Part shown: piece after piece, positions 1-17,113 of the stretch | Layout of the letters: the number at the start of each line of letters is the position of its first letter | How positions within the stretch are numbered: position 1 is the first letter of the stretch | UHGV virus genome: UHGV-1341054 | Length of the DNA stretch: 25,777 nt | Origin: a virus | Reading direction: 5' to 3' (one strand) | Translations under genes and position numbers: made by a program | Notes under the pieces: model-generated | The model's database searches: none | What the model was told of the DNA's origin: nothing | What the model saw: only the letters and a program-made list of their open reading frames with translations

Positions 1-915
1 GGCAGCAGGACCGTTTGAGCAGGCGTTCTTGGAATGTAGATTTTCGTTTTTCTCCAGCAATACCTTACGCCGTGCAGCCCGATCGCATTCGTCACGACCA
101 AGCAAATAGCCATTAATCTCTCTAGGGAACTGACCAAGCACCTTAACCATGTACTCAATGGAATCGCGCCCACCATATTCCAGGAGTTTCTGCCTGATAA
201 ATTGTGGCGTAACAAACGGAGATTCTTCTGAGTTAAGAACAATTGCGGTCCAGATCCCTTTCGGATTACCCGGAGTCTTTGCAAGAGAATGGTGCGAGTC
301 GTAGAAATAACCACTTGGTCTGGTTGGCTGGGAAAGCATAAGCATCCGGTTATCTTCTTCTGTCAAAGCCCCGGTCATTACCCCGATCGCTTTATCAGAT
401 ATACCTGATGCTTCATCCAGAATTAGAAGCAAATGTGCCGCGTGCTCCCCCGCCAGCGCTTCTTCGTTACCGAGTCGATAACCTTTGCAGAGAACTTCCC
501 AGATCCCTTTGCGGGAACGCTCATAAAACATGGTGTCAGATAAGACAAAGTAAGTCTGTAGCCACCCATGACGCTTTACTGCGTTCGCCCAATACTGTTT
601 AACGTATTTGAATACGCCTGTTTTTACCTGGCCTATTTTGTTTGCGACGATGATGACACGGGCATCCGGGAAGAGAATCAGATAAATCAGCAACAACATT
701 GCCGTTAACGATGATTTCCCCGTACCGTGACCAGAAGTAACGGTGGTCCTACTCCCCTTTTGCTGTACAGACTGGATGATCTCCTGCTGCTGGTGGGATG
801 GAAACATGCCGAAAATATCAACAACAGCCTGGGTAAAGTTGTAGCGATATTTAATAACCATGTCGCGCCAGCGTGGATCACTGGTGACGCACTTAATCTT
901 ACGACTGCGCGCCAT
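1..915 (-). CDS. pacB: Terminase large subunit, N-terminal 305 codons (PacB-like); 3' end lies beyond the window start
   Basis: Minus-strand frame is open from ATG at 915..913 to position 1 (absent from the ORF track because it runs off the edge). Translation [29 protein letters not shown]... contains a Walker A P-loop ([11 protein letters not shown]) as expected for a terminase ATPase. Start overlaps the stop of the upstream gene (TAATG). Confidence 0.75.
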
Positions 916-2279
916 TAATCGGCCTCTGGCGATTCTATGGCGATTTCATCATATCCGCCGTCATACTCTGTATCTGACGCGTCGTAATCGCCGTAAATTT
1001 CAGCCGTTGCGGAGGGGTCTATATCCAATTCATCATCGTTGGACTCGAATTCACCTGCCTTACGCTCACCATTTTGGTCATAATCACCACACCCCAGGTC
1101 TTCAACTATTGTTGCCACATCGGCACGGCGATCTGCCAACCACTGCGGATGGTTAGCCTGGAGTGAGGCGAACTCCCGCGCTTCTTTGTCCAGTTGTTCA
1201 TCATCAACATCATTGCTGTCAGAAATTGGCGGTTCCAGAAGCGTGATGGCTTTCGCCGCACGCGCAGCCAGGATTGCAGGAACACTTACCCCTTGCCGCT
1301 CGATGTATTCCGCAACACCTATATCGTCCAGTTCCTCGCGCTCGCGCATACGTATAGCGGTTGCGATAACCCTGGCGGCGCGTGCATCAGCGCCAAGACG
1401 ATAGTCAATCTCTTTGCTACGTTGCTCTGCCTGTAGGCGTGCAATGTCCAGTTTTTCTCTGGCCTCAGCCTCTTTAAATGCCTGCTGCCGCGCCCCCTGA
1501 ATCAGTTTTTCCTGGCCTTGCTGGAGTTTTTGCTCTGTCTGATAAATGGCTGCGAGGCGGCTGATGAAGTCGTTCATGTAATAGGCGGCATCCTGCATGA
1601 GGCCGCAGAGACGCTGGGCCGGGTGCATCCCTTCCGGCTCGCCATCGCCTAAAATATCAATTTCTTTACGTAGCCGTGCCGCCTCCATGTCTACAATTGA
1701 CTGGTATTCTATGGCGCGTTCCTGAGCCATCAGTATGGCCTTACGCAGATGTTCAGCTGCACCGTTCTGCATCATTTCACGGGCGACATTTTTCGACGGC
1801 AAGGTGGCACATTGTGCTGATTCGCCAGGGATCATTTGCAATGATCCCTGACTTGAAGATGCCTTTTTATCCTTTTCTGGGATCATTTTTGCTTTTTTAT
1901 CGGCAAATGATCCCTTTGATAAATCCACTAACTCACTGTTATCAAAGGGCTTATCAGCATGATCCTCGTTACGCTTGCGCGGCATCTCCCTGAATTGACT
2001 TGTCGCTGGCCTATTGTCAGTTTTTGTAAATTCTGATTCTTTTCCGCTCGCTCGTTGTTGTCTTTTTGTCCCACCAGCACGGGGTTGCTGGCGTGTTCTG
2101 GCGCGGTTCTTTGATGGTTTAACTTTGGCCTGCACCTCATTTTTTTTCATATTGAGATGCTTTCTGGCAGTGTTGAAACTAAGGCCATTTTGTTCACAGT
2201 ATTCCTTTACCGTGATCCCTTTTTCCTCTTTCAACGCCAGAAACCGGGCACGATGCTCTTCCCAATTAACCAGTGTCAT
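915..2279 (-). CDS. pacA: Terminase small subunit (PacA-like), 454 aa
   Basis: ORF immediately upstream of and coupled to the large subunit. N-terminus [42 protein letters not shown] looks like a terminase small-subunit HTH. The gene contains a GATC-rich repeat cluster (1828-1914), as the P1 pac site lies inside pacA. Start overlaps the upstream gene stop (ATGA). Confidence 0.65.
1828..1914. other. Candidate pac (packaging initiation) site: four copies of a GATC-containing 9-mer as two inverted pairs
   Basis: GGGATCATT at 1828-1836 and 1879-1887; reverse complement AATGATCCC at 1840-1848 and 1906-1914. Each carries a Dam GATC site. Analogous to the clustered TGATCA/G hexamers of the P1 pac site, but not the same sequence. 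Confidence 0.45.
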
Positions 2280-2668
2280 ACAGCAACACCACGGCGTTTA
2301 ATGGCTTCATTCCACAATCGGTTAGCCATGTTCACCAGTTCACGGCGTTCCGTCTGATTCTTGCCAAAGATAAATCGGTTGGAATTCTTTACAAGCAGGC
2401 GGTCAAACTGCGGTGTACGTCCGCGTACCTTAAACTGATACCCGTCAAGGCCATGAAGCCAGTATTTGCGCGGGTATACGCGGTCATCGCGCTCACAAAT
2501 AGCCCTGCTCGAACGAACAAAGTGACGGATGATATTGTTAACATTGACACGTGACACGTGAAGATGAGGATATTTATCTTTGGCGAGGGTGGTTATCTCA
2601 GTGACTGTAAGATAACAGTCTTTCCTGATCATGATATCCGCTATTTCGGCACTGCTGATTTTATCCAT
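2276..2668 (-). CDS. Hypothetical protein, 130 aa; by position could be a late-gene regulator, unverified
   Basis: ATG at 2668..2666; stop overlaps the pacA start (ATGA). In P1 the gene upstream of pacA is lpa, but the match here is positional only. Confidence 0.55.
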   Translation of the reverse strand: MDKISSAEIADIMIRKDCYLTVTEITTLAKDKYPHLHVSRVNVNNIIRHFVRSSRAICERDDRVYPRKYWLHGLDGYQFKVRGRTPQFDRLLVKNSNRFIFGKNQTERRELVNMANRLWNEAIKRRGVAV

Positions 2669-2748
2669 TAAGTCCCCCGGGCAGAGAATGACCGAGGGGT
2701 ATATTAATCAGTATGTTAATTGTTTATAGACTGTCTAAAGGTGAGTAA

Positions 2749-2779
2749 TGTTAGAAATTACAGGTTTTATTTCTAACAC
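2749..2779. promoter_or_regulatory. Inverted pair of the recurring motif (TGTTAGAAATT ... ATTTCTAACAC), candidate operator or promoter element
   Basis: TGTTAGAAA at 2749-2757 and TTTCTAACA at 2771-2779 form a perfect 9-bp inverted repeat with a 13-bp spacer, in the 110-bp intergenic region upstream of the 2276..2668 gene. Confidence 0.35.
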
Positions 2780-3174
2780 TACCATCTGCTTAAACGAACA
2801 ATATGTCTTACTTTTGCGGACCACTTCCCTTTGGTTTTGTTGACTACCGCCTGCGCCAGCCTTAACTCGCTTTCATAATCAGCCTTGCGCCCATCGTTTT
2901 CCGACAGCAAATAGCCTTCAACTTGTGGTACGGTCAGATAGTCCTGATCAACATTAAGTGGTCCTGTGGGTGCTCTGAACGGCGTTAGTTGCTTTGCGTT
3001 CCAGTTAAATCGAATACGTACGTCACGAACGGCAAGGGTTGCATACCCATGCACGGTACTTTCGTAACCTAGTTTTGTTTCACCTGCATGACATGACGTG
3101 ATTTTGCAGTCAAGCAACGTCCAGTCCATTTCCTTAGCTTGTTCAACTGTTAGCTTCTGCTCTTCGTACATCAA
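2779..3174 (-). CDS. Hypothetical protein, about 130 aa
   Basis: ORF-track TTG start at 3174; a more likely ATG at 3171..3169 overlaps the stop of the upstream gene (translational coupling). Confidence 0.55.
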   Translation of the reverse strand: MMYEEQKLTVEQAKEMDWTLLDCKITSCHAGETKLGYESTVHGYATLAVRDVRIRFNWNAKQLTPFRAPTGPLNVDQDYLTVPQVEGYLLSENDGRKADYESELRLAQAVVNKTKGKWSAKVRHIVRLSRW

Positions 3175-3746
3175 AATGCCTCCCAGTCAGTTGCCATAAT
3201 GTCTACGCTGCTGGCAAACCAGTCAGAACGTGCTTGCAAAGCACCATCCATCATTACCAGACGTGGAAGAATGGAGACTTTGACGCCCTTTTGCACGTTG
3301 AATATTCCTTCCGGAAGAAAGCTAACCATCTTGTCCTTACTTTCAATGCAGCCGGGTTCGAGTGATATGTACTGTCCTTTAGGCCAGGATTTTCGGCGTG
3401 CGTCTAATCCGTTCATTAACCAGTGGATTGCGACAGAAAAAGGAATGTTTGCTTTGGCAATGGAAAGTCCACCAGCGACAGCCTGTTTATGAAACTTGAG
3501 GAGTTTTACAGCGGCCTCGGCAAGCGCAACATAAGGTTCGGGATGGACTTCGGTAAGGCTGCATCCACGAACTGTTACTGTCACAGCATGGGAATCGCCT
3601 TTTGACGCCGTTTCGATGTTGACCCCTTTGTTTGACAGTGCGTGATACAAAGCGTCACCCATGCATGACCAGCGTTCATTGCGTCCAATGAACTCACTCA
3701 AGATGCGGTCCTGCTCTGTATACGTTGCATTAGCCAAAACAGTCAT
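3171..3746 (-). CDS. Hypothetical protein, 191 aa
   Basis: ATG at 3746 preceded by a strong SD (AGGAGAGG, 4 nt spacer); contiguous with and coupled to the downstream gene. Confidence 0.65.
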   Translation of the reverse strand: MTVLANATYTEQDRILSEFIGRNERWSCMGDALYHALSNKGVNIETASKGDSHAVTVTVRGCSLTEVHPEPYVALAEAAVKLLKFHKQAVAGGLSIAKANIPFSVAIHWLMNGLDARRKSWPKGQYISLEPGCIESKDKMVSFLPEGIFNVQKGVKVSILPRLVMMDGALQARSDWFASSVDIMATDWEAF

Positions 3747-3984
3747 AACCTCTCCTTTCCTACAGACGTAACTATTCCCCGGATACCCGGTAGTGTGTGT
3801 CTTGTTTCGTATTAGTATGAGATACAGCCTTAGCGACTATATGATGGGTTGAGATAGGGTTGTGGCGGTGGTGCCTCCACCTGCCAGGACAGCCACCCCT
3901 GGCGACGACACTTACCAGAACGATTTTGTTTATACAAAAAAGTTGAAGAAAATGGCTTCGTCACGTGCGCATAGCCGCAATTAC

Positions 3985-4095
3985 CACAACGGTAAGGATG
4001 TTCATTGCATCGACCGTCAAGGGCTGCTTTTCGATGATGACTCTACTTCGCAAGCGATAATGACGCGCTAATCAAACACCCTTACCTGTTATGTG
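3985..4095. repeat. Conserved-arm hairpin E1 (CACAACGGTAAGG ... CCTTACCTGTTATGTG)
   Basis: Left arm 3985-3997, right arm 4079-4095. Arms are reverse complements apart from one extra T in the right arm; about 81-nt loop. Confidence 0.4.
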
Positions 4096-4275
4096 CCGTG
4101 CTCTTCCGGCTGTCACACCGAATCGCCAGGATGGTGAGTCCTCGGTCCGACGATATGAACGGGGCTTGCACATTCCGGCTACCTGATGTGCCCATACAGT
4201 GTTAGTAAAAGGTACCTAACAGCTACACCAGACCGCTATCGACGCATGTGCCATACGCCGTGTTACAACCAAATA

Positions 4276-4351
4276 TGGTGGCCCCTACCGGACTTGAACC
4301 GATGACCGTGCGATTATGAGTCGCCAGCTCTAACCACTGAGCTAAGGGGCC
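4276..4351 (-). tRNA. tRNA with anticodon CAU, most like tRNA-Ile2 (lysidine type); Met not excluded
   Basis: Minus-strand 76 nt GGCCCCTTAGCTCAGTGGTTAGAGCTGGCGACTCATAATCGCACGGTCATCGGTTCAAGTCCGGTAGGGGCCACCA. 7-bp acceptor stem, D and T arms, anticodon loop CTCATAA, encoded CCA. Closely resembles E. coli ileX as recalled from memory. Confidence 0.85.
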
Positions 4352-4357
4352 GGATTA

Positions 4358-4462
4358 CTATTTACTAAGTGCTTCAATGGCGCTAACAATGCCGCCTACA
4401 ACTATGGCAACAATAATAATGAGAACAATTGGATACTTGTCAGCAAAATCCCAGAATCCCAT
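4358..4462 (-). CDS. Small hydrophobic peptide, 34 aa (MGFWDFADKYPIVLIIIVAIVVGGIVSAIEALSK)
   Basis: ATG at 4462..4460 preceded by SD GAAGGA (6 nt spacer). One predicted TM helix. Stop TAG at 4358-4360 lies 6 nt before the tRNA-Ile 5' end. Start overlaps the stop of the upstream small ORF (TGATG). Not in the ORF track (under 60 aa). Confidence 0.4.
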   Translation of the reverse strand: MGFWDFADKYPIVLIIIVAIVVGGIVSAIEALSK

Positions 4463-4665
4463 CACTGATCCTTCGAAGCTATTTTAAATATCGGCCATAC
4501 CAATGTTACGGCTACTGCCACCAACGCCCCGTCCGATAAAACCGACAGGATTGTGCTGGTGAAATCCACCAGCACGGACAGCTTGAGCACCATGCTCCCT
4601 ACTCTCCAATTGTTGTGGTTACCGGTACTGATCTCCGGCTTAGCGACCCCGGCTACTGACTGCAT
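4462..4665 (-). CDS. Small membrane protein, 67 aa from ATG 4665, or 43 aa from internal ATG 4593
   Basis: Hydrophobic C-terminal half (ALVAVAVTLVWPIF). Internal ATG at 4593 has SD GGAGAG; the 4665 start has a weak RBS. Coupled to the downstream 34-aa ORF. Confidence 0.3.
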   Translation of the reverse strand: MQSVAGVAKPEISTGNHNNWRVGSMVLKLSVLVDFTSTILSVLSDGALVAVAVTLVWPIFKIASKDQ

Positions 4666-4733
4666 TGCAGTGTGTGAACTCGCCTCGTGTGTCGCTGGGG
4701 CATTTCTTTCCGCGCATCAGTCTGCGCATCAAC

Positions 4734-4809
4734 CACAACGGAAAGAGCATTGGCTAACCAGGCTCGCCGACTCTTCACGATTATCGGCTCAATGCTCTTA
4801 CCTGTTGTG
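4734..4809. repeat. Conserved-arm hairpin E2 (CACAACGGAAAGAGCATTG ... CAATGCTCTTACCTGTTGTG)
   Basis: Left arm 4734-4752, right arm 4790-4809, about 19 bp with mismatches and one extra T in the right arm. The 37-nt loop holds an inner hairpin GCCGA...TCGGC. Confidence 0.4.
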
Positions 4810-4987
4810 CGCTCCGTTTCGTGGAGCTAACGGCGGGTGATCGGGCCGCACCAGACTGGACTTATTTCAGCGTTATGCTCATGCCAGAGAATCAAACTGT
4901 GATGGTCGGTGCTGAACTCCGACACAGGGTTGTAGCAAGCCCCGCAAAGCGCGCACTACTGTAGTTGCGGCACATCAGCCTGTGCAT

Positions 4988-5088
4988 TCACCACAATGTT
5001 GAGAACACTGGTTGTCACGCTGCAACGCAACATTTATTCGTAAATTGGGATATGACCCCGTTACGACAGTGTTCTCAACGTTGTAGTG
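4988..5088. repeat. Long hairpin E3, 14-bp perfect core stem with CACAA/TTGTG-type base
   Basis: TGTTGAGAACACTG (4997-5010) pairs with CAGTGTTCTCAACG (5067-5080); the flanking CACCACAA and TTGTAGTG extend the stem imperfectly; 56-nt loop. Confidence 0.35.
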
Positions 5089-5224
5089 CCGGTTACGGTT
5101 CCGGCCAGGTCTCTTCCTCAACGGGGTGTTCTCCATACGGGCTACCGTTTATTGGTCGTTCCTGCGGTTTATGTTGTGAAGCCAGATGCTTATCTTCTGG
5201 TTGCTTCTAAGAGCTGCACTTCAT

Positions 5225-5311
5225 CACAACGGTAAGGGTACTTCGTAGGGATTCGAACCCTCTGCCAAGCACGGCGATCTCCGACGTCGCAAAATACCCT
5301 TACCTGTTGTG
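5225..5311 (-). ncRNA. tRNA-like fragment (T-arm mimic) enclosed by conserved-arm hairpin E4, directly 3' of tRNA-Thr
   Basis: Arms CACAACGGTAAGGGTA (5225-5240) and TACCCTTACCTGTTGTG (5295-5311). Interior contains GGGTTCGAATCCC (T-stem-loop with TTCGAAT) but no matching D or anticodon arms and no CCA. Right arm ends 1 nt from the tRNA-Thr 3' end. Confidence 0.35.
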
Positions 5312-5312
5312 T

Positions 5313-5388
5313 TGGGGCCGATTAACGGACTCGAACCGCTGACATCCTGCTTACAAGGCAGGCGCTCTACCAACTGAGCTAAATCGGC
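5313..5388 (-). tRNA. tRNA-Thr (anticodon UGU)
   Basis: Minus-strand 76 nt GCCGATTTAGCTCAGTTGGTAGAGCGCCTGCCTTGTAAGCAGGATGTCAGCGGTTCGAGTCCGTTAATCGGCCCCA. Canonical cloverleaf, anticodon loop CTTGTAA, encoded CCA. Confidence 0.9.
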
Positions 5389-5390
5389 AC

Positions 5391-5465
5391 TGGCGATGGT
5401 GAGTGGATTCGAACCACCGACCAGTTGGTTAACAGCCAACTGCTCTACCGCTGAGCTACACCATC
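5391..5465 (-). tRNA. tRNA-Asn (anticodon GUU)
   Basis: Minus-strand 75 nt GATGGTGTAGCTCAGCGGTAGAGCAGTTGGCTGTTAACCAACTGGTCGGTGGTTCGAATCCACTCACCATCGCCA. Canonical cloverleaf, anticodon loop CTGTTAA, encoded CCA. Lies 2 nt upstream of tRNA-Thr. Confidence 0.9.
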
Positions 5466-5662
5466 AATTACCGGGTACGTCTCCGGCAAGGGCTTCCACC
5501 TTCGTATGCTTTTCGGCGCACCGCGCCCTGGCTGCAATTCGGTAACAGGGAGTGCATGACCCTGGCTTCCGGCGTAGTTAGCGCCTTCCGCATGACGGGA
5601 TATACCCGCTTAGGTTTGGAACTGTCCAAATGCTGTTAAGCACCGGCTGCTGCGCGAGTTGC

Positions 5663-5745
5663 CACAACAGATAAGGACGCTGCCAAGAAAGACCTGACCC
5701 TTCTCATTCATCTGGTTAATCACACCAGCGCCCTTACCTGTTATG
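5663..5745. repeat. Conserved-arm hairpin E5 (CACAACAGATAAGGACGC ... GCGCCCTTACCTGTTATG)
   Basis: Left arm 5663-5680, right arm 5728-5745, 15 of 18 complementary; lies upstream (in minus sense) of the tRNA-Asn/Thr pair. Confidence 0.4.
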
Positions 5746-5926
5746 ACTCCCCGTTCTTTAATACACAGACGGGAAAACTCTGCGGTCGATTTCTTGACGG
5801 GGGGCGACTCATACCCCGTGGCGTCAGGCTTCTTAGGCCGCTACCATCATCAGATCATCGTTTGCATTTACTTTAATGGTCGGTTTCTAAACCGCCGCAA
5901 AGTCGCTAACCATGACGAAAACACTG

Positions 5927-5951
5927 AAAAAAAGCCCACCCGGAGATGGGC
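5927..5951 (-). terminator. Candidate rho-independent terminator (minus strand)
   Basis: In minus sense: GCCCA-TCTCCGGG-TGGGC followed by TTTTTTT (A-run 5927-5933 on the plus strand). Confidence 0.45.
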
Positions 5952-5970
5952 AAATACGCTACATCTCACA

Positions 5971-6049
5971 CAAGAAAGAAGCCGACTGCCTGAGCTGGAT
6001 CCACTTTCAAATGCCCGCAGAAAGGGATCACAAGTCGGCTTCTTTCTTG
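5971..6049 (-). ncRNA. Large hairpin (17-bp perfect stem plus inner inverted repeat), candidate structured sRNA ending at the 5927-5951 terminator
   Basis: CAAGAAAGAAGCCGACT (5971-5987) pairs perfectly with AGTCGGCTTCTTTCTTG (6033-6049). Inner arms GATCCACTTTC and GAAAGGGATC. The overlapping ORFs on both strands look spurious. Confidence 0.3.
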
Positions 6050-6265
6050 ATGCGGCACTCTCTCCGCCCGTCACCGCTCTGTCTCGGTTGTCGCGTTTGC
6101 CACGCCAGCCGTAACGAGGTTTAAAGTCTTTGCACGTTTCCATCACTCGACTGCCGTCTGTGGCTGTTCGTTGCGGCGGGGGTGCCTCCCCCTGGGGATA
6201 TCCCCGGCCTTACCCCATTCTTTCAAGACACAATGCAAGGCCACATCCGCATAGGTGCATTACCG

Positions 6266-6331
6266 CAACATTAAGGAGACTCAGGGCAAAAGATACTCGC
6301 CACAAAAAATCCCTATGCCTCCTTAATGTTG
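6266..6331. repeat. Hairpin with 13-bp perfect stem (CAACATTAAGGAG ... CTCCTTAATGTTG)
   Basis: Perfect reverse-complement arms at 6266-6278 and 6319-6331 with a 40-nt loop; no adjacent T-run. Confidence 0.35.
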
Positions 6332-6552
6332 AGGATGTGCATTGATGATGACCCGAAGCAGCCTGGCCCACTAAGCACGTTTCTCTGCCAGATCATCATC
6401 ACTGCACGCCCTGAATGCATTGCCATCCGTGGCGTTGAGGTCGCTTGTTGTTTACTCCGCAAAATGCACTTTTGGAGAACACTTTATGGAGCATCATCAG
6501 TTCCTGCTGACCTGTTCTTGCCATTTGCACGGGCGCCTGGCTTACGCATTAT

Positions 6553-6579
6553 ATTTCTAACATTTTCATTTGTTAGAAG
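6553..6579. promoter_or_regulatory. Inverted pair of the recurring motif (ATTTCTAACA ... TGTTAGAAG)
   Basis: TTCTAACA and TGTTAGAA form an 8-bp inverted repeat with an 8-bp spacer. In minus sense the sequence reads ATGTTAGAAATATAATG, which contains a TATAAT -10-like hexamer. Confidence 0.35.
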
Positions 6580-6714
6580 TGCTGGTGGGTTAAGATTTGG
6601 CGAAAAAGAGTGACGCTCTACCTGCTGCAAGCCGTGTTGAGATATCACCCCACCAGCACGAAAAATTTTAGGACAACCACACAAAACAATCAATGTGTTA
6701 TTTTGTTCAACTCA

Positions 6715-6726
6715 AATTTCTAACAC
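6715..6726. promoter_or_regulatory. Recurring motif copy AATTTCTAACAC
   Basis: Exact copy of the 12-mer also found at 9140-9151; lies just downstream of the 6743 gene stop at the head of the noncoding region. Confidence 0.3.
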
Positions 6727-6742
6727 ATTAATTTAATGCCAA

Positions 6743-8063
6743 TCATCTCCCGTACAAATCTTCAACACCGCCGTTCTTTTTATCCCACTCATTCGCCCAT
6801 ACCCGACAGGAATCAATGATTTCCTGTCGGCAGTCGCCCTGCATGAATGGCAACTCGTCATGAAAGTTGCTTGGGATGCAGGCCACACTGAAAACAGTAT
6901 CAAATCCGGCGTCCTTGATGCCTTCCATCGTCTCAGGGCGCATTTTTAACTCGTCAACCGGGGCATCTTTGGCATCCATAATGCGTCGATGCAAGCGAGG
7001 ATAATCCTCTTCAAGGTACGCCATAATCTTATTGTGAAGGCATTCGTCGATGTCGTTGTTCCAGTCTTTGGCAAACTCAGGCATTCGGTAATAAAGTGGC
7101 GTTCCCCAAACTGACGGGATCACATCCATTGTCAGCAAACGGTTTGTTCTAATTTGCAGGTGATAGTTAGCAGTAAGTAATGATTCTCCCCGCTGTCCGG
7201 TTTCCATCTCAAGAAAGTCGTTTTTTTCCGCATGAATAAAATCTGNNNNNNNNNNGGCCATGTGGGTATTCGTGAATATAAGCAACCGCATCCCTGCCAT
7301 CGTACATGAGCGGGAAAGATTCCGGGCGTTCTGGCATACCGCAGGCGCGATTCAGATCATACCCAAGCTGAGAACATTCACTCTTTAACTTCTCGATGAT
7401 AGCCTGAGCAGAAGCAAGTTTCTTACGCAGGCTTACGTTCTCGCCCTGGTATTTAATGCTCACTTTGTTCAGTTCGGATACACGCTCTTTAAGTTCGCGG
7501 CGTTCTCTTTTAAGGGAACGGTTATCTCTCTCGCTGTCATCCAGGCGTTTTGCCAGGCTGGACGGGAAGTCTTTCTTATAGCGCCGTAAATCTGACTCTG
7601 CCGCTGCGCGTAGCGTGTTGGCCTGCTGGAGACTGGCTTCAAGTGTACCGATCTCTCTTTTATGCTGTTCTGCATACTCAGTAATGATTTCACCCAGCGT
7701 CTCCGCCGTGGCGCTCATACCGGTAGCATGGGAAAAACTGATCAGGCTGGCGTTAACGACACGCTGAAATTCTTCGAACTGATCAACCAGGGCGTTGTAG
7801 TCTGATGCACCCGCATCCAGTAGCTGATTGATGTCATTTACAAGGTTATCTGCTGTGGCAAGAGTGCTTTCAAAAAGGCGTTTTGACAGGTCATCTCCGG
7901 CAGTCCGCTTTTGTAACAACTGTATCTGGCTGCGGAGTGTATCGATATCCGCAGAAATGATGTCTTCNNNNNNNNNNATCAAGGACAAGGCAGAGTCAAT
8001 GGGTTGGAAAGAAGGTCAGAAATGATGTCTTCGGTGGAGGAGGTTACTGCTTGCTGACTCATG
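6743..8063 (-). CDS. Hypothetical protein, about 440 aa, N-terminal coiled-coil region; reading frame broken by two 10-N gaps
   Basis: ORF-track pieces 7209..7988 and 6743..7300 are protein-like only on opposite sides of the N run at 7246-7255, consistent with one gene and an arbitrary gap length. The likely true start is ATG at 8063 (SD AAGGA): MSQQAVTSSTEDIIS, whose EDIIS is encoded by a 16-mer duplicated either side of the N run at 7968-7977. Confidence 0.5.
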
Positions 8064-8089
8064 GAGGTTCCTTTTGAAACTTGAATTTA

Positions 8090-8101
8090 ATTTTCTAACA
8101 T
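8090..8101. promoter_or_regulatory. Recurring motif copy (ATTTTCTAACAT) about 30 nt upstream of the 8063 start
   Basis: Minus sense reads ATGTTAGAAAAT, between the upstream terminator (8143-8164) and the ATG at 8063; a TGnTAnAAA extended -10-like arrangement is possible. Confidence 0.35.
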
Positions 8102-8142
8102 ATTTTATTAGTAATTAAGTTTCTTTGGAATACCCATAAGTC

Positions 8143-8164
8143 AAAAAACCCGCCATTGGGCGGG
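8143..8164 (-). terminator. Rho-independent terminator (minus strand)
   Basis: In minus sense: CCCGCC-CAAT-GGCGGG followed by TTTTTT; 14 nt downstream of the stop of the 8178..8498 gene. Confidence 0.55.
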
Positions 8165-8177
8165 TATCAGAGGTTAA

Positions 8178-8498
8178 TCAAGGATGTATTACGGACCATA
8201 ACCAGATTGAGGCAAGGGCTAAAAGCAAGATAAGGATTGCAGCCAGCAACCATTTCATTCGCAAGAAACCTGGCTGATTAACGCCATTGGCGTATTCTGG
8301 ATCGGACATCTTTCCCATCCAGCACGCAGAAAGCAGCGTGGCATTTTCATTCATATCAAGTTCGTTCAGGGCTTCCCTGATGAGCGGGGCAGTAACCGCT
8401 TTGCGGGCGCTCTTCATAACGATGCTTCGCGTTCTGCCTGCGTCATCTGCGAATGCCAGACTGACGTAGTGACTTCTCAGCAAGGCGCGCACTCCCAA
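8178..8498 (-). CDS. Small tail-anchored membrane protein, 106 aa (C-terminal TM helix WLLAAILILLLALASIWLW)
   Basis: ORF with a single hydrophobic helix at the extreme C-terminus, followed by a terminator; function not assignable from sequence. Confidence 0.5.
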   Translation of the reverse strand: MGVRALLRSHYVSLAFADDAGRTRSIVMKSARKAVTAPLIREALNELDMNENATLLSACWMGKMSDPEYANGVNQPGFLRMKWLLAAILILLLALASIWLWSVIHP

Positions 8499-8680
8499 TC
8501 ATCAGCTAAAGAACTGTCCGGCGTGATATGGACTTTTTCGCCAGTAAAAAGGTTTGTGTAATCCACGTTCCCATTCACTTGCTTTTCAATTCCGATGCAC
8601 ATGGAAGGACTCCAACCACTGCGACGGGCAACAACACAAACTCCAGCGGGAACAAGTTCAGCCACGGTACTTAAATGCAA
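8477..8680 (-). CDS. Possible small protein, 67 aa, TTG start
   Basis: TTG start with GGAG about 10 nt upstream, 13 nt after the VRR-NUC stop; overlaps the next gene by 22 nt. Weak support. Confidence 0.25.
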   Translation of the reverse strand: MHLSTVAELVPAGVCVVARRSGWSPSMCIGIEKQVNGNVDYTNLFTGEKVHITPDSSLADDWECAPC

Positions 8681-8693
8681 AACATTTTCTCCG

Positions 8694-9167
8694 TTAAGTT
8701 AGATCAACATATTCCGTGATAGCTTTGATGGCTTCATCGGCACTTCGCGCCTCAAAGCAGTAGTAACCTGCTTCTGTGAGGCGTGTCATCCAGACGATTT
8801 GTTCGGGAGTTAGACGATTATTCCCTTGCTTCATCTCGATGCGCATTCCGTGATAACCGCCACGCGCAAGATCAATCGAAAGGTCTGGATAACCTTTCTT
8901 TTGCCCCTCAGCGACCATTTTGATAGCTGTCCTTATTCCACGAAGTCCTCCGTTCGGGGTGGCGTGTGTATGTTCGTACACATATCGCATGTGGCGATAG
9001 AGCCAATCCAGAACGCGAACCTGCTCGTAGTGTTCATGGTTCCCTTTGATTAGTTCGGGGTTATTTGCAAGCTCTAGAAGAGCGGCTGCGTGCAGGGTTT
9101 TTGCTTCAAATCCGTAATGGCGTCTTTTTGTTCGATTGTAATTTCTAACACATGTTATAGCTTTCAT
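8694..9167 (-). CDS. VRR-NUC domain nuclease (PD-(D/E)xK superfamily), 157 aa
   Basis: Motifs EHYEQVRVLDWL ... GYPDLSIDLARGGYHGMRIEMKQG ... LTPEQIVWMTRL match the VRR-NUC pattern (E...Q...WL, PDL, hExK). The N-terminal ~44 aa extension and exact start are uncertain; the AATTTCTAACAC motif lies inside codons 5-10. Confidence 0.7.
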   Translation of the reverse strand: MKAITCVRNYNRTKRRHYGFEAKTLHAAALLELANNPELIKGNHEHYEQVRVLDWLYRHMRYVYEHTHATPNGGLRGIRTAIKMVAEGQKKGYPDLSIDLARGGYHGMRIEMKQGNNRLTPEQIVWMTRLTEAGYYCFEARSADEAIKAITEYVDLT

Positions 9168-9326
9168 TAGCTGAAATTAACAACAAAATGATTAAAATGC
9201 CAAAACCATGCTAAATACTACTCAAGGGAGGTAGATATGCAACTGCTCGGACCTGCTTTAAGTTCAATGGATGACATGCATCAAAGAACTGGGTAAATCG
9301 CATTAAATCTACCCAGCATATTATTT

Positions 9327-9593
9327 TCAATAGTTTATCTTATCCTGTTCGGTAATACTGCTAATTGTCTTATCAATGGCTACTTTCCACCCATCAAAGT
9401 TTAAATTATCAATACGCTCGACCAATTTATCCTCAGTATGAGGATAATAAATCCAACTCCATTCATTAGGACTATCAATCTTTATCAGTGTAAAAACACG
9501 CTTATAACGATGAAAGTCAAGTTCGTATCCCTTTGACAATGCGTAATCTTTTAGATCATCAATCGTGAAAAGCCGATTCTTTCGCATAATCAC
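9327..9593 (-). CDS. Hypothetical protein, 88 aa, in a visibly AT-rich segment (moron-like)
   Basis: ORF coupled to the upstream gene (ATGA overlap at 9590-9593); base composition looks more AT-rich than neighbours by eye. Confidence 0.5.
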   Translation of the reverse strand: MIMRKNRLFTIDDLKDYALSKGYELDFHRYKRVFTLIKIDSPNEWSWIYYPHTEDKLVERIDNLNFDGWKVAIDKTISSITEQDKINY

Positions 9594-10024
9594 CCCGCCA
9601 TGCTGTATTTTTCTATAGATTCGTCATAACTGGTGTACAGATACGGTTCTGTATCATCAGCATAGCTTGCGACTTCAAGTTGGTGGACCTGATTGTAAAC
9701 CGCATCGTTTTCCAGACGTTCTGCCGAATACAAATGCGCCGCGAGAAGAGTCAATGCCGGGCGACTCATGCTATAGATAGTTGCCACATCGCCATCCACA
9801 ATCTGACCAAAGTCAGTAATTCCGCGCTCCAGCAATTGCGTTTTGATAGCAGGCCACCACGGACCATACAGCCGGTACAATAACGGTTCTTTTTTCAACC
9901 TTTCGACCATTACGCCAAGATAGGCATCCAGGTATTCACCTTCTCCCCTGCCAACAAGTGCCTGTGGCAAAATTTCTTCAAGGTAAGATTCCGTTGGTTT
10001 TACTGTGTCGATCAATGTTGTCAT
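9590..10024 (-). CDS. Hypothetical protein, 144 aa, acidic C-terminus; immediately downstream of the DarB-like gene
   Basis: ATG at 10024, 36 nt after the giant gene stop; C-terminal third is rich in D/E/Y (EVASYADDTEPYLYTSYDESIEKY). Confidence 0.6.
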   Translation of the reverse strand: MTTLIDTVKPTESYLEEILPQALVGRGEGEYLDAYLGVMVERLKKEPLLYRLYGPWWPAIKTQLLERGITDFGQIVDGDVATIYSMSRPALTLLAAHLYSAERLENDAVYNQVHQLEVASYADDTEPYLYTSYDESIEKYSMAG

Positions 10025-10060
10025 TTTAATTCGGCCTCTTTCGAGGCCGCTCCATATCTG

Positions 10061-13000
10061 TTAAGCCGCCGCTTCAATGATTTTACGCACTTCATCAATT
10101 GAATAGCGCGTCGATACCATCCAGGCCGGACGGTCAAAGTCCACATCGGCAACCGGGTTAACTTCGAAGTTCCAGAAACGCCCACCGATTTTCTTGATGG
10201 CATCTTTTGCGTTGCGAATAGATGAAGATCCGGGCATATCTGCAATGAGATAAACAGCACCAGCGTCTTCACTTACGCTCCACCAGCGACCGCGTACACG
10301 TGCTTTGGCGCGAATAGGCTTATCGTTTACCACGATAATGTAATCATCATTCGCTACCTCGTCAGCCTTGATCTCAGCTACATCAGCCTGTTCTTCCCGT
10401 TCAGTCTTAGCCGCCGCAAGACGTTCAGCAATCTCTGACTCCGTAGCGCCACCATTTTTAAGCGACACAAAGTCATCCCACGTTGCAGATTTCAGAGCAT
10501 CAGGCAAATCTTCCACATACCCGCCCGCTTTTAAGGCGTTAGCATGGCGTATAGCCATCCCGACAAGACGATTCAAGCTATATGCATCTGCGAAATCATC
10601 ACGGGTAATGCTTTTATCCTCAAATGCATGAATTAACGCCCCCGCTTTAATCCAGACTGTTGCAGATGTTTCAAGCGGATTATCGGCATTAGAAATGCTT
10701 AGTTGCGCACTGTAAACTGACTGATCTGCCAACGAGGCAAGTGACGCCCAACCATCTGCATCACTTTGCATTTTGTACTGATCAAACAGCGCATCACGCC
10801 ATGCATTTAGCGCCATGCGTGTTTTCTCAATTTTGGTTGTGATTTTGGACGTTCGCAGTTGTTCGAACATCTGCGAAATCTCCGAACCATTGGTGAAGGC
10901 TTTCATGCGCCCCTGGAAATCGCGGAAAGAAAGCACGCCTCGCCAGTACGTTTCCAGGCCTTCTCCATTTGGCTTGCGGAACAAGCTGCGGACATCTTCC
11001 TGAGTCACTTTTTCAAGTGAACGCCCGGAGAGATCGCGCCCTGCCATCCAGCCATCGAACGCCTTGACCACATCATCCATAGTGGCCTGAGCGCCCCATG
11101 CCTCCATACCTTGCTCATAATCGAAGCCAAACAATGCACGGAGAAAACCTTCTGCCTCTGAAATACGAAGTGGGTTATCACCTGTCTGGATTTTCGCGAC
11201 TTCGCGTTTTAATGCTTCGTCGTTTACATCAGGATAAATCCATTGTTCAGGTGCTATCTCGTCACTTCCAGATGCGCTAATTTTTTGACCAATCATCCCG
11301 CCATAGGTAAAGGCCATTTGAATCTGACCATTGGCGTTACGATAAGCCCAATAGTTTACATCCGGTGCTCCTTGCCAACCGCCACGATCTTTCCCGGTTA
11401 CCCGCATAACACCGCTACGAATAGCGTCATAGAATTGATCGCGAGAAAGAGAGGTTGAAAGCTGGTGGCTTTGAACACCACGTGCCGCTATTTCTCGTGA
11501 TTCAGCCACCCCCTCTTCAAATGTTACCGCTTCAACCACTGAGTCAAACGGTAATGTCATGGTTGAGCCAGGAGAACGAGAGTAGCGACTTGCTCTATCC
11601 AGCCAGGCGACGCGGCAGGTGTATTGCGCTTTTTCGCCCTCAATTTGTGTCACGCGCACAACCGCCGTTGTCTCGTGTTCAGCATCAATGACTGCACGGT
11701 AGTAACTACCTTTATGCAACAGGATGTTCTTGCCAGTGCGCATATACTCCTGCGGGTTCTGAATAACATCGATACTGATATCCAGCACACCAGACTTAAT
11801 AGCACGCTCCACATCACCACGAGAGCGTTTCATAACAGTATCCGCGTCCTTCGCCCTGGTGATTGCAAATCGCAATTCACGCACTCTTTTTTTAGCTTTG
11901 CTTAGTGCTGAAAGCGTATATTTCTGTCCGTTTTTGTTGGTGCCGCTCTTAATCAGTCCATCCAGATCACTCTGGTATCGTTGCGCCTGCTCCATCGCGC
12001 TTTTCAGTTCTGCCTCCATCATGCCGATATCCTTCCCGGCAGCATTCGCCGCTTTCAGGTAGTTATCGAGAGCATTATTGGCTTCGCGTTGCGCTTTAAG
12101 TCGCAGGCGTTCCTCACGTTCTTTCGACTGACGAGCCATAATTGCGCGTCGTTCTTCCGGATTTGCCGCCAGCATAATGGCGCGCTCATCAGCGTCATCC
12201 GCATCACCATTGGCGATCTCTGACATATCGGAGGTCATCACCATCTTGATCCAGTCTTTCTTACGTTTAAGCGTATCCAGACGGAAGTCATCGAATGTGC
12301 CTTTGCCACAATAATAGTGAACATTAACCTTCTCTTGCGGAGAACCTACGCGCGCACCGCGCCCATTTCGTTGGTCGATACTGGCTGGAGTCCAGGGTAG
12401 TGTCAGGTGGTGAATATCGGTCGTTCCAATATGCAGGTTGATACCTACTTCGGCTTTCTTGTTACAGATAATGATCCGCGTGCGCCCTTCGTTATAGTCG
12501 GCAGCAATACCTTCCATCCCCTCAAGGCCAGCATCATTTTTAGCAGAGAGATAATCCTCATATTGGGCCAGTTTACTGTAGTAGGTTTCCCATGCGCCTT
12601 CTTTGTATTCACCGTCTTTGTTTGGCGTCGGTTCGGTCGGTTTTTTGACCTTTTTCAGCTTAACACCACCAGCCTGGCTAACAGTCGTAGCATTGATAAT
12701 GCCTATCTCCTGCTCTGACATTTGCAACGCACTGGCAATGATGCGACGTAGTTTCTGGTGCTGGGCTTTCTCGTCGATAAAGATAATTTGCTTACCGTTC
12801 TTAAGCCCTTCACGCAGGTTCTCGATAAGTGCGGCATACTTAGGCGGGATCGGGTGTGACACCTGTTTCATGTCGATGCCTGCATCAGCAATTGCCTTGA
12901 GTATTTCAGCCTCCAGGTCAATGCTGGCACGCAATTCGACATGATTTGGATGCTCACTAAATGTTGTAGCTACAACCTTGCTGGTACGGGTACTGACCAG

Positions 13001-16000
13001 GCCTCCGGTCGCATCCTCCTCTGCTTCTTCTGCATCGTCTGCCGCTTTCCCACCAGCTACTTTTGGTAGGTTATTAGCTATAGACTTCACCTGTTCAGTA
13101 AGCTCTACAGGGAACTGGAATGTGATAGCGCTGGCGTAAAGATCCGGGTCGATAGCGACCTTATCCATGTCGCGAATGATAGAGAAAATGAAATCATCCG
13201 GTTTCCCGCGAGTGATATTGCCTTCATCATCGACAGTGACGTCATCACCACGACTTAACTCCTGCGCGCGTTTACGAAGCTCTTCATAAGCTGCTTGCTG
13301 CTCTGGAGTCATTGGGATCTGCAAGGTGTTTTCGACGATATCCGGGATTTTTACCGTTGCACCAACATCGGAAGCCGTTTTAAGCGTTGTCCAGCGGTGG
13401 AAAATGCCACGCAGACCATCAAGGTTCTGGAAGCCCACCAGCCCCTGTTTCTCTTCCACTTCGCCAGAAATTTTCTGGACCTGAACAGTGGCTGTTTTAC
13501 CGAACACTCGCACAAAGTCGTCAGGGGTAATAATCCCCATGTGCATCCACTCGTGCTGAGGGATCACCGTTGACAGCATGTTGAAGGCGTCAATAGGGCT
13601 ATTAACCAGCGGAGTTGCTGTCAGCATTACGACGCCGCGCCCATTGTGACGTTTCATCATGTACGCAGCTTTTACAGCCATGTCACGGGCCATTTTGGAT
13701 ACCGCCGGATTAGGTAAATATGCCAGTTGCCCCGCTTCACGCCCGGCACCAAAGGAGTTGCGGTAGTTGTGCCCTTCGTCGGCAATTACGCTATCGAAGT
13801 TCATATCCTCAAAGTACGGGATATTCTGCTTCTTCGCTGTACCGGTATTCGCGGCCTGGTCCTTAATCTTGTTCTTCTTCTGCGCATCACGGTGCTTGCC
13901 TGACGCCAGGTCAAGACGCCCCATTTCGGCGGCATTAAAGACAGCCTGCTGTGAGTTTTCTCCGATGGTTTCATCGCGCAACGGGATAGATGCGAACTGC
14001 TCTTTTGTCATGATGACCGTTCGCCAGTTCGACGATGGGATCATGTTCATGCGTTGAGCGATAACGGCACTGGCGGATTCTTTAACAACATTACGGGTGA
14101 TCGGATTGCCGTCGTTATCAAGTCGCGGGGTGCCGTCCTGGTCGAGCACTGGGGCAGTCTGAATATTTCCGTCACCATCGCGCACTTCGTCCAGACCGAT
14201 AAACATCATATTGGCGAAGGCATCTGCACTGTAGAAGCTCTGTGCCTCGTGATACCAGTTCTGGTATACGGCCTTTGGAACAACGATACAGGTACGTTTG
14301 GTTCGCCCGGTTTCAAAGTTATAGGCTTCCAGTGCCAGCGCGGTCGTCGTTTTACCCAAACCAGTTCCGAATCCCATAATCCCGCGCCCATCTTCCGACA
14401 GACGACGAACTTCTTCGTTCTGGTAAGAAAGCGGTATACGTTTCCCGCTGATGCCTTCAAGCCCCAGGGGTGCGTCTGAATGGGTAAATGGAATATAACC
14501 GTTAAAGGCGTCGTTATAATCGCGGGCGATCTGATCTGCCTGCGGGTGAGTTCTTAACCAGTCGTTAAAACTCGTCTCAAGCTGGGCGATTTTGTCCAGG
14601 TACTCGTTAGCGTTCTGTCCGCGCGGTTTAACACCGTTCAGGTAGTTCTCAAGCTGATTCAGGAAGCCATCTTTGTTATTCGCTTTCTTGAACTCGTTCC
14701 CGTTTTTGCCGTTTACGGTTCGTAGCTGGTAGCCAGTAAATACCCCGTCCTTACCTTCGTAATCGTCCGGGGATACCAGAATGCCGTTCTCAACCTTAAG
14801 GTCGGGTTCTGTATACTTAAACTCGTCATAGCCCTGCTCTGCCAGGAACTCTTTTATCAGGCGGCGATCCAACCACCGTGCGTTAAGGTTTACCGTGACT
14901 TTGTTCAGCGGTGTAAACGTGCGTTTCTCTTCGATTTTTGAAAGCTGGCGCTCAAAGTTGGCCTTCCGCTCTCCTGTGGACGCGTCTCGCCAGCCCACCA
15001 GCAGTGCCACTTTTGATTTAATATCACCGCTAGTGGCACGGCCCATCGGTAGCAGGCAACCATATCCATCAATAGCGATATCGTCGAATTTCGCCAGGTA
15101 TTCCAGTGCTTCATCGTCGTCTTCGGGCAGTTCGCCTTTAAACGCCTCGCGGAAGTCATCAAGATTGATAGGATTAAGGGCAACATCGCTGAAAAGGTGT
15201 GTCACAACCTGTTCCGGACGAGTGAAATCAATACCAGCAGCCCCTTTGCTAACATCAAGCCGTCCGGACAGCAGATCGGATGCTTCACCGTCCTGATTGA
15301 CGTTCCCGGTGAATGTCAGCCAGTTCTTCGCGCCCGCTTCGGTAATATCGTTTAGCTTAATAGCGTGTGGTGGGCCATATTTAGCAACTTCGGCAGCCGT
15401 CAGACGTGCGGCATCAGCCAGTTCATCATCGACGTTTTCACCAAGGTTACGCTTATCCAGCGCTTTATTGATAAGTTGTCCGATCAGCGCACCGCGCATA
15501 ATGCGCTCACGGTCTTTTTCGCGTTGTTTCCCAGCAAAGCGAATCATTGCCGCTACTTCATCACTGATAACCGATGGATAGTCGGAAGCGATCGCGGATA
15601 TCTGCCCCCATGACAGAGCCAGAATGCCGTTTGTTGATTGGAACGTTGTTTGCAGATCACCGAATGTCGAAACACCATATCGGCTTACATCAAGTACGGA
15701 GGATTTGGTTGTCGCATCTTTAACCCATTTCAGGCCATCAAACTCGTGCCAGATGCCACCTACAAGGCGCTTATCTCCTACTTTGGCACCCTGCCATGCC
15801 TGAGTAGTTACGCCAAGCAAATCCCAATTAATGCGGCTTTCAAAGCGGCGCGATAGAGCGGTTTTCATCGACTCATTGGATACACGACCGTCCTTTTTCA
15901 CCACCAGGGTGTTGCGGAAGCTGGTGCGTTCCATGTCGCCGTAAACGAATCGCTTCCCTTCGGTTGTAAACCACTTGCCTTTCAGAAAGGTATCCCAAAG

Positions 16001-16903
16001 GACATTTGCCGATTTTAGCGTCGCATCATCCGTATCGGGGATCATCTCCAGGAAGGCTTCCGGGTGTTTACGCAATACCCATACGTCCACAACTGTATCT
16101 GTACCGGATTCGCTGAACGTACCGGAAGGCATACGATGTGCGCCCAGAAATTCCGCTTTACGACTAACCTTGTCACGCAGTTTCTTGTATTTAGTGCCGT
16201 CGGTCATGCCGTTAGGCACCACCAGCACGATCAGTCCGCCAGGTTTAACCTTGTCAATGGTACGAAGCACAAAGTAGTTACCTACGTTCTTTTCGTTCGC
16301 ATAGGCAGGATCTAATCCAGCCACACCGGAACGACCTTCCCCGAACGGCACATTACCCACCGCGTGGTCATACATTGCGTCTTTGGCTGCAAGCGACTCA
16401 AACGCTCCGATATTCACATCATCTTCCGGGTGCAATAACTGGTTAATTCGACCAGAAATCGGAGACAATTCGGCGCTCGTCATTATCATTCCCTGCCGCT
16501 TCGTCTCCTGGAAAATTCCCGTACCCGCTGACGGTTCAAGAACATGACCGCTATCAATGCCGTAATCCGAAAATAAATCCCAGATACCTTCTGCCATAAA
16601 TTGCGGCGTGTAATACTCGTACTGACTTCCTTCGCCATCCGTCAGACCACCTTCCCCGGTGTATCCTGCAAGGATCTGACGCTGTTCGTCTGTCAACTGA
16701 GAGCCATCGAAACCGGGAGGCAAAGCGTTAAGAAGATTGACTGCCGCGTTATTAGCTGCCCGGCGAGTCTTCTGAATGCTGACGCCATCTACCTTCTTAA
16801 CGCCGAAGGCGGCGATTGCACGTGGTTTATGTAACCGACTGATAAGGTCAATCAGTCCACCAATGCTGGTGGCTGCATTGATTGAATTGAGTAATTTGTC
16901 CAA
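10061..16903 (-). CDS. darB: Giant 2280-aa protein: N-terminal N6-adenine methyltransferase domain plus SF2 helicase, DarB-like antirestriction protein
   Basis: Single uninterrupted 6.8-kb ORF. MTase motif I VLEPSAGTGIF and motif IV GNVPFG near the N-terminus; helicase Walker A GFGTGLGKTT, motif II VIADEGHNY, motif III LTATPLVN, motif VI QRNGRGARVG. Size and architecture match P1 DarB (2255 aa) as recalled. Plus-strand ORFs inside are antisense shadows. Confidence 0.8.
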   Translation of the reverse strand: MDKLLNSINAATSIGGLIDLISRLHKPRAIAAFGVKKVDGVSIQKTRRAANNAAVNLLNALPPGFDGSQLTDEQRQILAGYTGEGGLTDGEGSQYEYYTPQFMAEGIWDLFSDYGIDSGHVLEPSAGTGIFQETKRQGMIMTSAELSPISGRINQLLHPEDDVNIGAFESLAAKDAMYDHAVGNVPFGEGRSGVAGLDPAYANEKNVGNYFVLRTIDKVKPGGLIVLVVPNGMTDGTKYKKLRDKVSRKAEFLGAHRMPSGTFSESGTDTVVDVWVLRKHPEAFLEMIPDTDDATLKSANVLWDTFLKGKWFTTEGKRFVYGDMERTSFRNTLVVKKDGRVSNESMKTALSRRFESRINWDLLGVTTQAWQGAKVGDKRLVGGIWHEFDGLKWVKDATTKSSVLDVSRYGVSTFGDLQTTFQSTNGILALSWGQISAIASDYPSVISDEVAAMIRFAGKQREKDRERIMRGALIGQLINKALDKRNLGENVDDELADAARLTAAEVAKYGPPHAIKLNDITEAGAKNWLTFTGNVNQDGEASDLLSGRLDVSKGAAGIDFTRPEQVVTHLFSDVALNPINLDDFREAFKGELPEDDDEALEYLAKFDDIAIDGYGCLLPMGRATSGDIKSKVALLVGWRDASTGERKANFERQLSKIEEKRTFTPLNKVTVNLNARWLDRRLIKEFLAEQGYDEFKYTEPDLKVENGILVSPDDYEGKDGVFTGYQLRTVNGKNGNEFKKANNKDGFLNQLENYLNGVKPRGQNANEYLDKIAQLETSFNDWLRTHPQADQIARDYNDAFNGYIPFTHSDAPLGLEGISGKRIPLSYQNEEVRRLSEDGRGIMGFGTGLGKTTTALALEAYNFETGRTKRTCIVVPKAVYQNWYHEAQSFYSADAFANMMFIGLDEVRDGDGNIQTAPVLDQDGTPRLDNDGNPITRNVVKESASAVIAQRMNMIPSSNWRTVIMTKEQFASIPLRDETIGENSQQAVFNAAEMGRLDLASGKHRDAQKKNKIKDQAANTGTAKKQNIPYFEDMNFDSVIADEGHNYRNSFGAGREAGQLAYLPNPAVSKMARDMAVKAAYMMKRHNGRGVVMLTATPLVNSPIDAFNMLSTVIPQHEWMHMGIITPDDFVRVFGKTATVQVQKISGEVEEKQGLVGFQNLDGLRGIFHRWTTLKTASDVGATVKIPDIVENTLQIPMTPEQQAAYEELRKRAQELSRGDDVTVDDEGNITRGKPDDFIFSIIRDMDKVAIDPDLYASAITFQFPVELTEQVKSIANNLPKVAGGKAADDAEEAEEDATGGLVSTRTSKVVATTFSEHPNHVELRASIDLEAEILKAIADAGIDMKQVSHPIPPKYAALIENLREGLKNGKQIIFIDEKAQHQKLRRIIASALQMSEQEIGIINATTVSQAGGVKLKKVKKPTEPTPNKDGEYKEGAWETYYSKLAQYEDYLSAKNDAGLEGMEGIAADYNEGRTRIIICNKKAEVGINLHIGTTDIHHLTLPWTPASIDQRNGRGARVGSPQEKVNVHYYCGKGTFDDFRLDTLKRKKDWIKMVMTSDMSEIANGDADDADERAIMLAANPEERRAIMARQSKEREERLRLKAQREANNALDNYLKAANAAGKDIGMMEAELKSAMEQAQRYQSDLDGLIKSGTNKNGQKYTLSALSKAKKRVRELRFAITRAKDADTVMKRSRGDVERAIKSGVLDISIDVIQNPQEYMRTGKNILLHKGSYYRAVIDAEHETTAVVRVTQIEGEKAQYTCRVAWLDRASRYSRSPGSTMTLPFDSVVEAVTFEEGVAESREIAARGVQSHQLSTSLSRDQFYDAIRSGVMRVTGKDRGGWQGAPDVNYWAYRNANGQIQMAFTYGGMIGQKISASGSDEIAPEQWIYPDVNDEALKREVAKIQTGDNPLRISEAEGFLRALFGFDYEQGMEAWGAQATMDDVVKAFDGWMAGRDLSGRSLEKVTQEDVRSLFRKPNGEGLETYWRGVLSFRDFQGRMKAFTNGSEISQMFEQLRTSKITTKIEKTRMALNAWRDALFDQYKMQSDADGWASLASLADQSVYSAQLSISNADNPLETSATVWIKAGALIHAFEDKSITRDDFADAYSLNRLVGMAIRHANALKAGGYVEDLPDALKSATWDDFVSLKNGGATESEIAERLAAAKTEREEQADVAEIKADEVANDDYIIVVNDKPIRAKARVRGRWWSVSEDAGAVYLIADMPGSSSIRNAKDAIKKIGGRFWNFEVNPVADVDFDRPAWMVSTRYSIDEVRKIIEAAA

Positions 16904-16977
16904 AGGAGATCCCCTTCAAAGCCGTGAACTCCGCACATTGCGGTACGGCTTGAAAGGGTATGGAGTGTGTTAATTTG

Positions 16978-17057
16978 GGATAACAAAGTTGGCACCCAAA
17001 ACCGCCATTCATTAATGGAGTAGGTTTTAGCGTGCCCGGATAACAAATATGGCTGCC
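16978..17057. promoter_or_regulatory. Divergent control region: two direct repeats GGATAACAAAnnTGGC 60 bp apart flanking a short palindrome
   Basis: GGATAACAAAGTTGGCACCC (16978-16997) and GGATAACAAATATGGCTGCC (17038-17057); between them AAAACC ... CCATTCATTAATGG ... GGTTTT. Lies between the divergent starts at 16903 (minus) and 17114 (plus). Confidence 0.3.
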
Positions 17058-17113
17058 ATGAAAATCACACACTCCCCATAGTTTATGTTCGTTTGTTAAC
17101 CAGAGGAGTAGTT

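Follow-up and report, generated by a model that had tools for sequence, protein, structure and literature searches.

A split pmgS-like gene in virus genome UHGV-1341054, most probably an intact gene broken by joins between metagenome contigs

Introduction

The virus genome UHGV-1341054 (25,777 nt; this whole stretch is called the window here) contains runs of Ns inside a gene, and one of the runs is flanked by a repeated 16-mer and by sequence that fits nowhere in the gene. Was the gene interrupted biologically, for instance by an insertion with direct repeats, or was it broken when the sequence was put together? A sequence-only reading of positions 6743-8063 had preferred an assembly or scaffolding artefact to biology, and that preference is borne out here by the contig joins, the continuity of the gene in relatives and the foreign origin of one contig end, with an artefact larger than had been described. 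With a probability of about 95%, the window consists of three metagenome contigs of a D6/P1-type Escherichia/Shigella phage-plasmid joined by 10-N spacers, and the gene itself is intact.

Pieces of the scaffold

Two N runs of 10 N each were present, as already reported; they lie at 7246-7255 and 7968-7977, there are no other Ns, and the contig sequence that they separate amounts to 7245 + 712 + 17800 nt. Both lie inside one minus-strand gene that extends from an ATG at 8062-8060 to a stop at 6743, so the earlier view of a single gene under both gaps was right. The pieces and their parts are as follows, with u1 and u2 denoting the unmatched ends at the two joins.

1..7245: piece A, 7245 nt, D6/P1-type phage-plasmid DNA with a foreign tail at each end
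1..45: left-end tail of piece A, the third foreign tail, within an otherwise pacB-like terminase gene
6743..7204, minus strand: PmgS-like gene, 3' portion encoding ETGQRGESLL...DLYGR, with the stop
7205..7245: u1, the last 41 nt of piece A, an unmatched tail (CATCTCAAGAAAGTCGTTTTTTTCCGCATGAATAAAATCTG)
7246..7255: N10 spacer joining piece A to piece B, where 8 nt of true sequence are absent
7256..7967, minus strand: piece B, 712 nt, with clean ends, comprising the coiled-coil centre of the PmgS-like gene
7952..7967: first copy of the 16-mer, with which piece B ends
7968..7977: N10 spacer joining piece B to piece C, two pieces that truly overlap by 16 nt, with no loss
7978..25777: piece C, 17800 nt, equal to OQVL01000787.1 and to ENA ERZ1745275 NODE_787_length_17800_cov_3.61
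7978..8016, plus strand: u2, 39-nt foreign tail corresponding to the 13 codons (IKDKAESMGWKEG) that end an AIPR abortive-infection gene
8017..8032: second copy of the 16-mer, where true phage sequence begins in piece C
8017..8062, minus strand: 5' part of the PmgS-like gene, MSQQAVTSSTEDIIS...
about 8069-8073: Shine-Dalgarno-like motif AAGGA upstream of the gene start

An exact scan of the metagenome collection with u2 returned OQVL01000787.1, a contig of 17800 nt whose base 1 corresponds to window position 7978 and which was 100% identical to window 7978-12073 (4096 nt compared). A look-up of the 2280-aa DarB-like protein led to ERZ1745275 NODE_787_length_17800_cov_3.612961, the same contig under its assembler name, and this record was identical to window 7978-25777 across all 17800 nt, the u2 tail included. 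Because piece C is thus a public contig that starts at 7978, the N runs mark joins between contigs. No public record was recovered for piece A or for piece B; for piece A, a look-up of its cut gene products gave no record of its own.

In SPAdes, the shortest gap that is written is 10 N, and the gap closer needs a 10-nt overlap. The literature on 10-N gaps yielded examples of the convention and no specific assembler rule: in print, such runs stand for scaffold gaps and are also used as a concatenation convention (PMC8535929, PMC9894930).

Comparison with closed relatives

Seven closed plasmids matched window 6500-8400, each over 108 nt less than the window has there. Identity was 99.6-99.7% for four plasmids of Shigella dysenteriae, 99.0% for E. 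coli pHX138.33gt_1 and 91% for two plasmids of E. fergusonii. At these seven loci, one hypothetical protein gene is annotated, together with a small neighbour. The alignment to a closed related genome that the sequence-only reading had proposed as a check thus gave an uninterrupted orthologue in every closed relative compared. Overall, the gene was uninterrupted in 8 closed replicons (the 7 plasmids and phage D6) and in ten draft assemblies. It measured 1212 nt (403 aa) in the five closed plasmids with at least 99% identity and in the ten drafts; the orthologue in the two closed E. fergusonii plasmids was likewise uninterrupted, with 1218 nt in the one that was checked. The ten drafts are further, independent NCBI assemblies in which the intact 403-aa gene adjoins the same 79-aa neighbour. 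Neither an N run nor a duplicated 16-mer occurred at the gene in any of the seven closed plasmids and ten drafts, and u1 and u2 were absent from all 13 related loci searched (L001-L013). The phage collection held no near-identical DNA, the closest relative there by protein being D6 (74%).

The whole window was colinear with the closed S. dysenteriae plasmid NZ_CP026808.1, so that the order and orientation of the pieces are true. Colinearity was broken at the two joins, at window 1-45 and at one natural mosaic segment, and the identities to NZ_CP026808.1 between these breaks were:

window 46-5970: 99.3%
window 6170-7204: 99.5%
window 7256-7967: 99.9%, with 1 mismatch
window 8017-25777: 99.6%

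The mosaic segment, window 5971-6169, comprises 199 nt in the stretch from the tRNA cluster to the pmgS-like gene and is unrelated to the 194 nt found at the corresponding place in the S. dysenteriae plasmid. It was 98% identical to more than 100 closed P1-like E. coli plasmids of about 90 kb and was also present in NODE_6482, the contig described below; its presence in these plasmids and in that contig marks it, by sequence comparison, as a natural mosaic cassette and not an artefact. The segment contains a long near-perfect hairpin (AAGAAAGAAGCCGACT...AGTCGGCTTCTTTCTT).

The gene and its repair

At the 7968-7977 gap, the references carry the 16-mer CAGAAATGATGTCTTC once, and the window carries the 16-mer, N10, u2 and the 16-mer again. 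The 16-mer was present in exactly 2 copies in the window, with 0 expected (100 shuffles). The duplication had been noticed before with the first copy correctly at 7952-7967; the second lies at 8017-8032 and not at 8018-8033, and the unplaced sequence between the N run and this copy amounts to 39 nt (7978-8016), not 40 nt. At the 7246-7255 gap, the references read ...GGTTTC-TGCAACCA-GGCCATG... and the window reads GGTTTC, u1, N10, GGCCATG. Here u1 and the N10 stand in for the 8 nt TGCAACCA of the references, for a net gain of 43 nt, which agrees with the frame shift previously attributed to this gap.

Repair of the gene by deletion of 7968-8032 and by replacement of 7205-7255 with TGCAACCA gave a 1212-nt ORF of 403 aa, which differed from the gene for WP_064198747.1 of Shigella and E. 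coli phage-plasmids at 0 aa and 3 nt. The last 153 codons of the gene, as they stand in the window, translate identically to those of the closed plasmids. The net extra 65 nt at one gap and 43 nt at the other explain both frame shifts. Deletion of 7968-8017, the repair suggested earlier, yielded MSQQAVTSSTEDIISEDIISADID..., with an in-frame 5-codon duplication of EDIIS, and not the protein given for it; the N-terminus proposed, MSQQAVTSSTEDIISADIDTLRSQ, can be obtained, provided that 65 nt (7968-8032) are taken out. The ribosome binding site seen in that reading is present as the AAGGA motif upstream of the start.

The repaired product matched phrog_1660 (PmgS-like head morphogenesis) with an E value of 3.4e-118, residues 1-401 aligning on 1-403 of 405, and was 73.9% identical to D6 orf9 (YP_009914686.1). 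Pfam gave coiled-coil matches in the centre of the product, all of them sub-threshold. On these homologies, the gene is a known, intact one whose 403-aa product is a PmgS-like head-morphogenesis protein, putatively a prohead scaffolding protein. The D6 orf9 product is annotated as PmgS-like, with a 'putative morphogenetic function' and as a 'putative prohead scaffolding protein', the function of the family being putative.

As with D6 orf9, the pmgS-like gene is located between a block of darB-, ulx-, pmgM- and pmgR-like genes and the tRNA cluster, and the gene order is that of D6 (darB-like, ulx-like, small ORFs, pmgS-like, tRNA cluster). The neighbourhood in the window includes PacA/PacB, Lpa, Tad2-like, three tRNAs, DarB-like, Ulx-like, RepL and DarA-like genes and is that of a D6/P1-type phage-plasmid. 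The features located individually were:

about 3171-3746, minus strand: Tad2-like (anti-Thoeris) gene
4276-4351, minus strand: tRNA-Met(cat), labelled Ile by RefSeq in pHX138.33gt_1
5313-5388, minus strand: tRNA-Thr(tgt), labelled Thr by RefSeq in pHX138.33gt_1
5391-5465, minus strand: tRNA-Asn(gtt), labelled Arg by RefSeq in pHX138.33gt_1
about 10061-16903, minus strand: DarB-like methylase-helicase ORF, intact, 2280 aa

In the annotation of the S. dysenteriae plasmid, the DarB-like ORF is divided into two CDS.

Foreign contig ends

Unplaced sequence of about 40 nt was found at both gaps, always across the Ns from the central 712-nt piece. The sequence-only reading had recorded it at one gap (u2) and had missed u1 (7205-7245) and the tail at 1-45.

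The source of u2 could be traced. Window 7978-8026, that is u2 with the next 10 nt, was identical at 49 of 49 positions to 3257-3305 of OMBL01000773.1 (L015), a contig from another sample that is otherwise without similarity to the window. An ORF at 950-3304 of this contig (784 aa) matched Pfam AIPR at 1e-70, and u2 is its 3' end. The GC content of the contig is 35-43%, against 49% for the window. From this match, u2 was shown to derive from a predicted AIPR gene of an unrelated low-GC organism. The first 10 nt of the second 16-mer copy, CAGAAATGAT, are the only sequence common to the phage and the AIPR contig, and since nothing else is shared, the start of piece C is read from the alignment as a chimeric junction at a 10-nt microhomology. 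Apart from the metagenome scan, u2 gave no match: a search of the E. coli complete genomes and the PLSDB plasmids was negative, as were exact scans of the viral contigs and, with the u2 core, of the genome contigs. At 950-6106 of OMBL01000773.1, the AIPR ORF is followed directly by genes for a ResIII/SNF2 helicase that includes a WG repeat and for a cytosine methyltransferase, and the stretch looks like a defence island.

No source for u1 was found in the E. coli genomes, the plasmids, the viral contigs (searched also with half of u1) or the genome contigs, and u1 is unlike the AY[IL]H.YP.GL.A that is conserved in homologues. Window 1-45 was unaligned to the closed plasmids and to L017, another metagenome contig of the same phage variant, both of which continue with true pacB-like sequence, and it had no match in the viral contigs, the E. 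coli genomes or the plasmids. As the tails lacked matches in the E. coli complete genomes and PLSDB, they stem neither from the host chromosome nor from a common IS.

A further contig of ERZ1745275, NODE_6482_length_6683_cov_2.95 (L016), was 99.985% identical to window 584-7204. It extends 6 nt further into the true gene before passing into an unmatched tail of 44 nt that differs from u1 (L016 1-44), and its other end carries a 12-nt unmatched tail (L016 6672-6683). Over 6621 nt, NODE_6482 departs from the window at one position only, a G/T at 5316, inside tRNA-Thr. The PacA variant of the window was found in just three contigs of a large collection, NODE_6482 among them. Piece A and NODE_6482 are most easily explained as one read set that was assembled, or output, in two ways. 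Another of the three, a contig of the same phage variant from a different assembly, with a MEGAHIT-style name, aligned end-to-end with the closed plasmid and had no tails, a contrast that ties the tails to the ERZ1745275 assembly. Foreign tails were present on five of the eight contig ends examined, a rate that is unusually high and exceeds ordinary chimera rates.

Interpretation

The arrangement can be accounted for by low-coverage metagenome contigs set in their true order and orientation with 10-N placeholders between them, the low coverage being judged from the contig names alone (cov 3.61 and 2.95). The 16-mer appears twice because the 16-nt overlap of pieces B and C was too short for the assembler to merge, and the 8 nt TGCAACCA at the other join were probably uncovered. 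Three ends of the two large pieces carry 39-45 nt alien to the phage, most likely from chimeric reads (template switching) or from wrongly closed graph tips, which may have been unclippable at a k-mer coverage of about 3x. The N10 runs were presumably written by a scaffolder that used read pairs or a reference; since the pieces follow the closed plasmids in both order and orientation, the joining appears to have drawn on linking information and not to have been random.

A real insertion close to the 5' end of the gene, such as a mobile element flanked by a 16-bp target-site duplication and with its interior hidden by the Ns, has next to no probability, even though the direct 16-nt repeat that bounds the extra sequence superficially resembles such a duplication. 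Only one side of the N run carries extra sequence, and an independent contig record begins directly after the run. Moreover, u2 comes from a foreign AIPR ORF, of which it is the 3' end, and is not an element end, u1 and u2 are mutually unrelated and unique in the window and have no inverted repeat between them, and the extra sequence is missing from all relatives. Dropping one repeat copy together with the insert gives back the exact reference protein. When a transposable element with a target-site duplication was considered as a class, element ends on both sides were not found. Almost negligible, too, is the chance that the N runs are masks laid by a data provider over real bases. Some of the collections used are said to hold masked stretches that read as N; here, however, the flanks are non-contiguous in any relative (a 16-nt duplication at one gap, 8 nt turned into 41 foreign nt and N10 at the other), and a public contig record begins exactly after one of the runs.

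The tails might also be co-resident, divergent pmgS-like alleles, the assembly graph having branched at a site of strain heterogeneity or at a mosaic boundary. Piece A and NODE_6482 do end at most 6 nt apart, their tails both open in the frame of the gene, and the two tails are weakly alike (GCGGAAAA / 'AEK'), with 12 of 500 shuffles scoring as well. Against divergent alleles, the motif AY[IL]H.YP.GL.A stands right before the break in the homologues from E. fergusonii (96% amino-acid identity), D6 (74%) and Klebsiella michiganensis (61%) and is absent from the tails; the homologue search behind this comparison gave 3 matches and missed the 403-aa family itself, and it was used for the motif comparison only. 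The tails were also no better aligned to the reference upstream sequence than shuffles were (278 and 285 of 500 as good), u2 has an in-frame stop and comes from a non-homologous gene, and the normal sequence is supplied by piece B at normal identity. Divergent alleles are accordingly judged very unlikely. As to a hypervariable or mosaic allele as a known type, homology of the tails to family members was not found (motif absent, similarity at the level of shuffles). It is extremely unlikely that the tails are real molecules of the sample, either recombination junctions between the phage-plasmid and gut-bacterial DNA or variants broken at a hotspot at about 7204-7212 in the pmgS-like gene; the one point in favour is that two contigs stop at most 6 nt apart with different tails.

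With contig joins as the preferred reading, there is no biological feature at this locus beyond the known intact gene and nothing biologically new, and the relevance is one of data hygiene only. Annotated as written, the window would show a false "insertion with direct repeats", a seeming frameshift and two or three spurious pieces of genes, and the phage-plasmid would be credited with about 125 nt from other organisms. It should be handled as three separate contigs, with 1-45, 7205-7245 and 7978-8016 trimmed and with pieces B and C merged on their 16-nt overlap. The contig ends of ERZ1745275 / OQVL01 are unfit as evidence for insertions or gene fusions.

Comparison with known systems

The joins resemble the 10-N gaps of short-read scaffolds and concatenated sets in having Ns at contig boundaries, an unmerged overlap that appears doubled and a few missing bases. 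Clean isolate assemblies, in contrast, are typically without foreign contig ends of 39-45 nt, and here the tails mimic insertions. The start of piece C is like the inter-genome chimeras of metagenomes that form at microhomology, with the switch falling within the shared CAGAAATGAT. Compared with chimeric contig ends of metagenomes in general, the present case differs in that only one of the tails could be assigned a source and in that the frequency of tails, 5/8, is unusually high.
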